Shown here: positions 55,534 through 57,550 of the stretch, in pieces
Numbering within the stretch: position 1 is the stretch's first letter
How the letters are laid out: each line of letters opens with the position of its first letter
Assembly: GCA_014190215.1 (NCBI GenBank)
Contig: BJGB01000001.1
Location: 1 to 59,545 of the forward strand
Length of the DNA: 59,545 nt
Source of the DNA: Actinomycetes bacterium
Lineage (GTDB): Bacteria; Actinomycetota; Acidimicrobiia; Acidimicrobiales; Ilumatobacteraceae
Direction: 5' to 3'
Notes under the pieces: model-generated
Databases searched by the model: none
Told to the model about the DNA's origin: nothing
Seen by the model: the letters and a program-made list of their open reading frames with translations, nothing else
Position numbers and translations under genes: made by a program

Positions 55534-56616
55534 CTACAGTTGTGGTCGGACAATGAATTGTAGGAAACCGCCGTCGCCCGAAACCTCAGCCACGAGACTG
55601 CTGTCGTACACATCGTTCGGGCCCTGCATCAGGTCATTTTCAGTGGCGCCTGGTGCGGTGGTCACCAAAGTCCAAGCCTGGCGTTTGTAGGTGAGGTTTT
55701 GTGGGTGTAACCGGTGGGCTTCTTTCCACCAAGAAACGGCTGCATCTTGACTTACGGTTTTGCGCAGGTAATCACCCAATTCGAAGCAGGCAGTTGCACG
55801 CGCTTCATTATCGGATCGAGGCTGGCTACGTTCGACAACTTCTTCGGCGCTCAGAGCGAATGGTGAAGATGCACCGTTTTTTGCCCAATCAATGATCGCT
55901 GCCCGATAAGCCTCAGCATCGTCGGGAATGTCTTTGACGGCATGGAGCATTTTGTCCAATGCTTCAGGCAGTCCTTCTGGTATTTCCATATCGCGCATTG
56001 GGTTGCGTTCGATGGAAGCACCTTCGGCTGGACGTACTAAAACACCGTCTTCGTTGATCCATACAGCCATCGGAATGTTAGTGAAACCAAAAAGTGGATT
56101 CGTAGCGTGCAAGGTATCAACAACACTTGGGTGAGTTGCTTGACCAAGTTCATGCCACGGCCGTGCATGTTCAGCGTTGATGTCAAGAGCGACAGTGACG
56201 ACGGTTGCGCCGTATTGTGCGATTTCTAAGTTCAGTGCTTGCCACCCGGGCAAGCTTGAGCGACAGCCTCAATAACTGGACCAGGCAACAAGGATTACCT
56301 TTTTACCTCGCAACGATGAGAGGCGAAATGGGGAACCATCAAAGTTCATCAATTCAGGATCGGCAGCGACAGCAGTATTCAGGGATTTTCCACTGAGAGT
56401 CGCAGGGCCAAGTGACCAAACCCCATGATCCGCATCCTCAACAAGTGGCATACCTAGTCGTGCGGCGGCAATGGCCACATCCAGTGAACCGTCGGCATTC
56501 ACGGCTCCAGGCGCTGGAACGCAGATCTCACCTCGACAGAGACCTTCGGGCTTGGGCTCCCAGCCAGTGGCTTGAGCGAATTCACGAGTAGTTGTTCGAA
56601 GTTCGGTAAGGATCAC
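55534..56616 (-). CDS. thioredoxin-fold ResA/TlpA-like selenoprotein candidate (in-frame UGA at 56269-56271 read as Sec; W-S-S-Y-U-G-C motif)
   Basis: Track ORFs 56269..56766 and 55534..56253 are in the same frame. They are separated only by TGA plus 5 sense codons. The fused sequence GKKVILVAWSSY-U-GCRSSLPGWQALNLEIAQYGATVVTVALD is a thioredoxin-fold beta-alpha-beta with the TGA at the redox position. A SECIS-like hairpin follows. The start is uncertain (GTG at 56616 is the first start codon after the upstream stop). Confidence 0.7.
56232..56259 (-). promoter_or_regulatory. candidate bacterial SECIS hairpin downstream of the in-frame UGA
   Basis: On the minus strand: UGA-GGCUGUCGC-UCA-A-GCUUGCC-CGGGU-GGCAAGC-AC-UGA. 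There is a 7-bp perfect upper stem (56249-56255 with 56237-56243), a 5-nt G-rich apical loop containing GGU, and a 3-bp lower stem. The loop lies about 21-25 nt after the UGA. Confidence 0.55.
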
Positions 56617-56647
56617 AGTGTCAGTCTGCCACGAGATAGGGCTTGAT

Positions 56648-57550
56648 TTACGACTTTGCGGCAGCTTCGGCAAGTTCGTGTGGTCCCGATCCTGGGTAAC
56701 CCTTGAAGTTGCGAACAAACTGCGACCATGGAGTGAGCATGGCGATGAGGTGATCGAAATCATCACCGATCCTGTTGATCACAGCACGCATTTGTTCATC
56801 GGTACGGACTTCGACCTGTTCGCGTAGTTCGCGCCCGAGTTGTGTAAACGCGCCGTCACTTATGAGGCCACGCCCTTGAAGGCGATCTATGGCTGCGCTG
56901 TAGTCATCTTCACTCCAGGCGCGAGTGCGACTATATGACTTGAGAGGAAGACCCCAAAATAGTTCGGTGAGTAATCCGATTTCGGTGGCGTCGAGACCTG
57001 CAGAAATCCACGCCGCAGTATGCGAGTCGCCACGATATTCGCGCAACATGTCTCCAAAGTGCCAGACAGCACCGAGGTCAGTCCCGGGAATGGTTTGGCT
57101 AAGCGTTCCAGCGAAGAGCGGACGACCTTCGGGGCGTAAGACACTTACGGCACGTTCCAAGATTGGTCGCGCCCGATTGACTCCACCAGGTTTGGCTCCG
57201 AGAATGCGTTCTAGTTGTCCGATTGCGCCGTTGCGTCGCGCAGCACAGATGGTTGCCGCATCAGTGATTTGCCAGCCAGCGGTCACGGCAGGGATGACAA
57301 CTTGCGGATTGAAAACTGCGAAGGCTGCTGCCACGACTTCGCCAGGAACTTGACCCATGAGCGAACCACGGCTGGTGAAATAAGCAACACTTTGCGGGAG
57401 AGCGACACCGTTCATATCGCCTGGGCTGGGCTCAAAGCCGAGAGCCACATAGTTGGCGTGGCATTCCGGCGAAAAATAGACCTGCCCGATGACTGGTTCG
57501 AGTGCACCACCGAGTGCACGAGCCTTTGTTGAGAGTTCGCGTGAATCCAT
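56648..57550 (-). CDS. conserved actinobacterial protein of unknown function
   Basis: 300-aa ORF. Start taken at the ATG at 57550 (MDSRELSTKARALGG). Contains FGDMLREYRGDSHTAAW, reminiscent of a conserved hypothetical family seen in Streptomyces and mycobacteria. It ends 31 nt upstream of the selenoprotein candidate. Confidence 0.6.
   Translation of the reverse strand: MDSRELSTKARALGGALEPVIGQVYFSPECHANYVALGFEPSPGDMNGVALPQSVAYFTSRGSLMGQVPGEVVAAAFAVFNPQVVIPAVTAGWQITDAATICAARRNGAIGQLERILGAKPGGVNRARPILERAVSVLRPEGRPLFAGTLSQTIPGTDLGAVWHFGDMLREYRGDSHTAAWISAGLDATEIGLLTELFWGLPLKSYSRTRAWSEDDYSAAIDRLQGRGLISDGAFTQLGRELREQVEVRTDEQMRAVINRIGDDFDHLIAMLTPWSQFVRNFKGYPGSGPHELAEAAAKS

Follow-up and report, generated by a model that had tools for sequence, protein, structure and literature searches.

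The window analyzed here is a stretch of 59,545 nucleotides from contig BJGB01000001.1 of an Actinomycetes bacterium of the family Ilumatobacteraceae (assembly GCA_014190215.1). It carries a gene that we regard, with high confidence, as coding for a selenoprotein of the known family NF041054, decoded by means of a selenocysteine insertion sequence (SECIS). The coding sequence (CDS; 55534..56616 (-)) starts with GTG, ends with TAG and specifies 360 amino acids (aa), with selenocysteine (Sec, U) predicted at residue 116. The Sec codon UGA (56269..56271 (-)) lies in W-S-S-Y-U-G-C-R, and Cys118 (TGT; 56263..56265 (-)), invariant in the alignments, is the predicted partner of Sec116 in a U-G-C redox motif. 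The gene provides a textbook example of a Sec/Cys pair, and its family is already known, since a curated NCBIfam model exists and UGC-type selenoproteins are listed in the literature. A preliminary description of this DNA, made by a model from the letters and a list of their open reading frames (ORFs), had proposed that a single in-frame UGA joins two called ORFs into a thioredoxin-fold selenoprotein.

When 56766..55534 was translated in one frame, only the TGA at 56271..56269 (-) interrupted the sequence, in the context ...GKKVILVAWSSY*GCRSSLPGWQALN.... The ORFs 56269..56766 and 55534..56253 were found in the same frame, and five sense codons (G-C-R-S-S) lie between the TGA and the TTG at 56253, the mechanical start of the downstream ORF. 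All three elements of the proposed fusion (the shared frame, the TGA as its only interruption and the five codons) were thus confirmed by translation. The proposed start at 56766 had to be corrected. Homolog N-termini (M/V-I-L/I) align at GTG 56616, which is 31 nt past the TAA of the upstream gene, and an ORF starting at 56766 overlaps that gene. For these two reasons, the CDS was set to 56616..55534, and the comparison points to GTG 56616 rather than 56766 as most likely the true start.

A search of 5.8 billion proteins matched two size classes of homolog, namely full-length proteins of 353-371 aa and products of 219-244 aa that span only the part after the TGA. Cys occupied the U column in 15 of 16 aligned full-length homologs (W-A-S-W/Y-C-G-C-R), and Ser did so in one, P0021. 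G117, C118 and R119 were invariant, and conservation reached well to either side of the junction. P0021, otherwise full-length, reads W-A-S-Y-S-G-C-R and has a diverging C-terminus; its Ser could be natural variation, or an artefact of sequencing or of a frameshift.

Orthologs were then considered at the DNA level in a scan with one genome per species, which yielded 568 relatives; the counts below refer to the best 80 of these 568. All 80 were Acidimicrobiia/Ilumatobacteraceae or unclassified actinobacterial metagenome-assembled genomes (MAGs), and the names of many point to lakes or rivers. As determined by tblastn through the TGA, they shared 58-98% amino-acid identity with the window protein, nearly all of them across residues 1-360. 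TGA was present in the same column in 80/80 loci, within W-[AS]-[ST]-[YW]-U-G-C-R. Alignment across the junction, suggested earlier as a check on the fusion, thus returned Cys in the homolog column and TGA in every ortholog. Since the same column is TGA in all of these species representatives and the frame is conserved on both sides, the UGA is more than a chance event. Both ORFs are one gene, with an in-frame UGA conserved beyond chance.

If the TGA were a genuine stop, the locus would be a pseudogene or consist of two separate genes, with independent translation of the downstream ORF from TTG 56253. Public gene callers do yield products of 219-244 aa, and other genes of the window have TGA as a normal stop. 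However, the frame is continuous through the TGA in all 80 species, with the identity across the junction given above, and homologs carry Cys at this position. A genuine stop would sever the thioredoxin fold at the catalytic residue, where strand beta3 gives way to helix alpha1, and it would leave G-C-R-S-S untranslated although this peptide is conserved. Moreover, the locus has a conserved SECIS hairpin, and the window carries selAB. A genuine stop was therefore judged extremely improbable. The 219-244 aa products represent Sec forms that gene callers have truncated. As the preliminary description had anticipated, ORF-based annotation splits the gene: the public copies are fragments of this size, mostly named 'hypothetical protein'.

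The SECIS-like hairpin that had been noticed after the TGA was delimited as GCUUGCC-CGGGU-GGCAAGC (56237..56255 (-)), with a 7-bp stem, a 5-nt loop and a folding energy of -10.3 kcal/mol. Its stem begins at base 17 counting from the U of the UGA, the UGA-to-loop spacing is 20 nt, and the loop CGGGU has a G at position 2, followed by another G. For bacterial SECIS (bSECIS) elements, an apical loop of 3-9 nt with a G in the first two loop positions, an upper stem of 4-16 bp, a distance of 16-37 nt from the UGA and a minimum free energy of <= -7.5 kcal/mol have been specified (PMC13188914). The hairpin agrees with all four bSECIS criteria quoted there. It was recovered in 81/81 sequences, of which 76 have the loop CGGGU and 5 have AGGUU; the mean free energy was -11.4 kcal/mol. 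In the five AGGUU loci (L028, L041, L044, L048 and L078), the loop results from a coupled synonymous change of CCC-GGG to CCA-GGT, by which GG is retained and the flanking loop bases shift together.

Since the hairpin sits in coding sequence (S-L-P-G-W-Q-A), synonymous sites provide an informative test, which was based on 74 distinct sequences. Leu+6 was restricted to CTG/TTG, and Leu+12 used CTG, CTC and CTT. Pro+7 was restricted to CCC/CCA, and the three orthologs with Ser there used TCC or TCA. Gly+8 was restricted to GGG/GGT, and Gly+1 was GGC in 68/74 sequences. In addition, the first base of Leu+6 covaried with the third base of Gln+10 (CTG/CAG 60, TTG/CAA 8, G-U wobble 4, mismatch 2). 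The RNAalifold consensus comprised 6 pairs, with the covarying pair being CG in 60, UA in 8, UG in 4 and CA in 2 sequences. No equivalent hairpin was found in 6 Cys-form genes of other taxa, which have other codons or residues there. Thus, as regards the earlier suggestion to examine the hairpin across orthologs, it is kept in the orthologs, and Cys forms are without it.

Genes for Sec decoding are encoded in the same window. The selA product, L-seryl-tRNA(Sec) selenium transferase (29201..30469 (-)), scored 404 bits with TIGR00474 (cutoff 268), and the selB product, an elongation factor specific for Sec that presumably binds the hairpin (27490..29199 (-)), scored 321 bits with TIGR00475 (cutoff 242); the earlier naming of both genes therefore stands. 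The two genes are adjacent and lie about 26 kb from the selenoprotein gene. The selB start is 1 nt past the selA stop, and a gene for an FxsA-family membrane protein is divergent upstream (window 27490..30996). Neither selC nor selD is located beside selAB, unlike the common selABC/selD clustering. No selD was found among the ORFs at 20141..27477, which encode aspartate kinase, asd, a response regulator, BagA/BagB-like ATPases, NfeD and a 2OG-Fe(II) oxygenase.

TGA is an ordinary stop in 8/20 family-identified window genes, selA included. For this reason, the standard code applies and general UGA reassignment is excluded. A change of code or a suppressor that reads the UGA as Trp or Gly (codes 4 and 25), without the Sec machinery, was considered since the source is a MAG of an uncultured lineage; nothing specific speaks for it. 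Against it stand the ordinary TGA stops just mentioned, the Cys, not Trp or Gly, that homologs carry in a redox motif, and a dedicated hairpin under synonymous-site constraint. This explanation was given next to no probability. A scan for canonical pairs returned other TGA-plus-hairpin candidates in the window, which lay on the strand opposite to known genes or in a different frame and were discarded. Likewise, a TGA at 47043 (+) before a HemQ/chlorite-dismutase-like gene (46310..47882) was rejected because it has no redox motif and the stretch upstream looks non-coding. Upstream of this TGA are 73 open codons, and there is an overlap with the previous ORF.

With U replaced by C, the fused protein matched NF041054 with 458 bits (cutoff 300) and an E-value of 2.4e-137, with residues 1-350 aligned to model positions 1-345/354. 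NF041054 (WAxxUGC_long, 'ResA-like WAxxUGC motif-containing protein') is an equivalog model with a curated cutoff of 300 bits; the family name that the preliminary description had given therefore exists. All 20 Cys-form homologs tested (20/20) also matched it. The name-giving motif is present as W112-S-S-Y-U116-G-C118, in which W, U/C, G and C are invariant. The second motif position is Ser in the window and in 42/80 orthologs and Ala in the remaining orthologs and in the Cys forms. This Ser is a conservative variation accepted by the curated hidden Markov model (HMM).

The 360-aa protein is predicted to comprise three parts. The structure was modelled with AlphaFold2 (AF2) for P0002, the nearest Cys form, which is 57% identical (mean predicted local distance difference test score (pLDDT) 83; predicted template modelling score (pTM) 0.83). 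The N-terminal family-specific domain (aa 1-80; 56377..56616 (-)) carries two Cys residues in a C-x4-C arrangement, C27 (56536..56538 (-)) and C32 (56521..56523 (-)), both of which are invariant columns in the alignments. In the model of P0002 this domain (aa about 1-75) is beta-rich, with a pLDDT of 86-92. The isolated N-terminal 82 aa gave no Pfam match at E<=10. A search of 1.84 billion representatives revealed no independent context for the domain: the inspected hits were of the same family or were frameshifted or chimeric calls, and in every inspected match the domain was joined to the thioredoxin/UGC module or was a fragment ending at the TGA. A sub-clade has an N-terminal extension of ~30 aa and again includes Sec forms (ending at WASW/WSSW) and Cys forms, and one homolog, P0231, has C-S-C in place of C-G-C (observations drawn from P0233, P0245, P0264, P0265, P0229, P0232 and P0231).

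The central ResA/TlpA-like thioredoxin-fold domain (aa about 84-204; 56005..56367 (-); about 85-205 in the model) holds U116-G-C118 at the start of helix alpha1, and its invariant P182 is the putative cis-Pro loop. It was the only part matched by Pfam, with 32.6 bits for AhpC-TSA (PF00578; gathering score 26) and 31 bits for Redoxin, both above gathering. A PDB profile search related it to ResA, TlpA and DsbE at E-values of 1e-16 to 1e-12. Foldseek with the P0002 model ranked ResA (2f9s, 1st9) at the top, with target-normalised template modelling (TM) scores of about 0.72-0.77. The TlpA/ResA-type layout that had been read from the letters was thus borne out, with a profile E-value of about 1e-16 and a TM of about 0.75 for the Cys-form model.

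The helical C-terminal region (aa about 215-325) contains a TPR-like helix pair (aa about 272-306; 55699..55803 (-)). The profile search matched consensus TPR proteins at profile positions 277-310, TPR_2 was found in homologs, and the P0002 model has helices H272-290 and H293-306. The pair is followed by a conserved N-W/L-T-Y-K-R-Q-A-W motif. The isolated C-terminal 161 aa yielded only a sub-threshold match to DUF6273 in Pfam. No hydrophobic membrane or signal segment was detected: the maximum 19-residue Kyte-Doolittle mean was 1.12, and the N-terminus MILTELRTTTREF is polar. Since a hydrophobic segment is lacking, the protein is probably soluble and cytoplasmic, unlike ResA and TlpA.

In the proposed mechanism, the hairpin at 56255..56237 would recruit SelB-GTP-Sec-tRNA(Sec), so that UGA116 would be read as selenocysteine and not as a stop. 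Sec116 takes the place at which ResA/TlpA carry their attacking Cys, the N-terminal end of helix alpha1, and would act as the nucleophile. The U-G-C centre would cycle between a selenol/thiol state and an intramolecular selenenylsulfide with Cys118. From this Sec116/Cys118 redox centre follows the proposed activity as a thiol(selenol)-disulfide oxidoreductase. The N-terminal C-x4-C domain would most likely be a built-in redox relay or substrate-docking module, and the TPR-like C-terminal region a protein-interaction surface. What we infer for this protein comprises selenium (Se) incorporation, its place in the cytoplasm, the cycling through a selenenylsulfide, what the two terminal domains do, and its physiological substrate. 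We favour disulfide exchange by way of an internal CX4C relay only tentatively.

The main functional rival is a peroxidase selenoprotein, in which peroxide would oxidise Sec116 to selenenic acid, to be resolved by Cys118 or the CX4C pair as in peroxiredoxins (Prx) and glutathione peroxidases (GPx). The AhpC-TSA (32.6 bits) and Redoxin matches above gathering point in this direction, together with a weak GSHPx match. JGI labels Cys forms 'peroxiredoxin', the Global Ocean Sampling (GOS) paper labels the UGC family 'Prx-like', and some Cys-form loci lie near CMD/AhpD-like, GSHPx, MarR, OsmC or Usp genes. On the other hand, the Prx signature P-x3-T/S-x2-C is absent, with Leu/Val at position -7 and Ala at position -3 in the family consensus, both sequence and structure match best to ResA, TlpA and DsbE rather than to peroxiredoxins, and the neighbourhood evidence is inconsistent across taxa. 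A role as peroxidase therefore seems unlikely.

Several observations weigh against the Sec-dependent oxidoreductase proposed here. Concerning decoding, the covariation within the hairpin is confined to one pair, the rest being invariant or showing wobble changes only, and the conserved peptide L-P-G-W-Q dictates part of the stem. Rfam gave no SECIS match, either with the whole window at the gathering score or with 55500..56700 at E<=10, a null result that is uninformative and expected because bacterial SECIS elements of such type are poorly represented in Rfam. The tRNA-Sec gene (selC) was not found in the 59.5-kb window by ARAGORN or Rfam, and selD was not found among the window ORFs scanned; selA and selB are thus the only part of the Sec pathway recovered from the window. 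Concerning function, no family member with an assayed function was found, and the structural evidence comes from the 57%-identical Cys form, not from the window protein itself. The catalytic cycle is extrapolated, because all characterised ResA/TlpA proteins have CxxC and not the C-x-C spacing of this family.

The selenoprotein gene is flanked on the same strand by two other genes. Upstream lies a gene for an SCO6745-family protein (56648..57550 (-)), which had been described as of unknown function and is reassigned here by its match to NF047719 (235 bits; cutoff 120). Downstream, 67 nt past the selenoprotein stop, a PAC2/proteasome-assembly-chaperone family protein is encoded (54495..55466 (-)), with weak TIGR00161/TIGR00162 matches. 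Among the orthologous loci, the SCO6745-family gene was upstream on the same strand in 59, the PAC2-family gene was downstream on the same strand in 75/80, and the order SCO6745, selenoprotein, PAC2 on one strand was found in 56 loci with both flanks available. P0018, a frameshifted homolog, is called as a fusion with a PF09754 (PAC2) domain, a fusion that probably arose via the frameshift. Since no promoter- or terminator-like site was detected between the three genes in the window, co-transcription is plausible, and the selenoprotein gene is possibly co-transcribed with its upstream neighbour.

The synteny is kept only within Acidimicrobiia, and Cys-form taxa have unrelated neighbours. Because the genomes are closely related and the neighbours of Cys forms are unrelated, no functional conclusion was drawn from the gene order. 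In a further reading, the family would be a self-contained cytoplasmic redox relay, not an analogue of ResA or Prx, in which the CX4C domain exchanges electrons, or a bound metal or persulfide, within the molecule with the unusual one-residue-spaced selenenylsulfide centre and the TPR-like tail selects a protein client. In that case, the SCO6745-family/selenoprotein/PAC2 order in Ilumatobacteraceae would reflect a functional link, e.g., a proteasome-associated or regulatory process under redox control, and a catalogued, uncharacterised selenoprotein family would acquire a new biochemical role. We consider such a relay quite improbable.

Elsewhere in the window, a pair of Get3/ArsA-fold ATPases (23396..25473 (-)) scored 361 bits for mycobacterial BagB, below the equivalog cutoff of 521, and 114 bits for BagA. 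A 1159-aa FtsK/SpoIIIE-type ATPase (31815..35294 (+)) resembles EssC/EccC of type VII secretion and has a weak N-terminal FHA-like match, with all scores below the family cutoffs.

The practical value of these results lies mainly in annotation repair for a real selenoprotein that ORF callers cut in two. JGI, NCBI, ENA and Logan hold the Sec forms almost only as C-terminal fragments of 205-239 aa named 'hypothetical protein' (clusters of P0001, P0016 and P0043), and the mis-annotation is systematic across the hundreds of cut entries matched. In addition, a well-supported Sec user is added to the Acidimicrobiia (Ilumatobacteraceae), with many of the retrieved MAGs coming from lakes and rivers. 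The 80-species alignment represents a clean bacterial SECIS constrained at synonymous sites and could be used to train SECIS and selenoprotein predictors for Actinomycetota. No new kind of system is described; the modest interest that remains concerns the biochemistry of the family, i.e., the C-x-C spacing, the CX4C N-domain and the TPR-like tail.

Among known systems, Sec-containing peroxiredoxins and Prx-like selenoproteins (PF00578, P-x3-T-x2-U) share with the window protein the thioredoxin fold, Sec at the position of the first Cys and a Pfam AhpC-TSA match above threshold. They differ in the residues before Sec, which read L-V-A-W-S-S-Y-U from -7 to 0 in the window protein, with no Pro at -7, and the structures nearest to it are of the ResA type, not Prx. 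ResA/TlpA/CcmG(DsbE) (cd02966; PDB 1st9, 2f9s, 1jfu, 4txo), the top sequence-profile and Foldseek matches, share the thioredoxin fold with an N-terminal beta-hairpin, F/A-W-A-S-W-C before helix alpha1 and the conserved proline loop. However, these proteins have C-x-x-C, whereas C/U-x-C, one residue shorter, is seen in the 80 Sec orthologs and throughout the Cys forms that were aligned. They are extracytoplasmic, whereas the window protein is without signal peptide or membrane anchor and has extra N-terminal CX4C and C-terminal TPR-like domains. Unlike for ResA/TlpA/CcmG, genes for cytochrome c or Cu-centre maturation are not linked in the neighbourhood. The scores with the respective models were 32 bits for ResA (NF002854; cutoff 170), 29 for TlpA (NF047696; cutoff 230) and 25 for StoA (cutoff 210), all far below the cutoffs. 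Since CxxC, extracytoplasmic targeting and HMM cutoffs all fail, the selenoprotein gene is not a ResA/TlpA orthologue.

The closest likeness is to NF041054 itself. The family has the same three-domain length of ~355 aa, the U/C-G-C-R motif and Trp at -4, and both Sec and Cys forms exist; compared with the motif in its name, the window protein has Ser (W-S-S-Y-U-G-C), as have about half of the 80 orthologs, and not Ala. An NCBI record from Ilumatobacteraceae, MGA0152635.1, is named 'ResA-like WAxxUGC motif-containing protein, partial'. Neither the family name 'WAxxUGC' nor the accession NF041054 was found in the literature, which documents the family under different names: selenoproteome surveys of 2008 and 2026 include UGC-containing Prx/TlpA-like selenoproteins. 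The GOS survey of 2008 included 'Prx-like (UGC-containing)' proteins (pfam00578, motif UGC) among previously described families, with 46 Sec and 855 Cys sequences that were more abundant in non-marine samples (PMC2398784). This non-marine enrichment agrees with the lake- and river-derived MAG names among the orthologs retrieved here, and from motif, domain and habitat, we infer that the 'UGC' family of the literature is NF041054.

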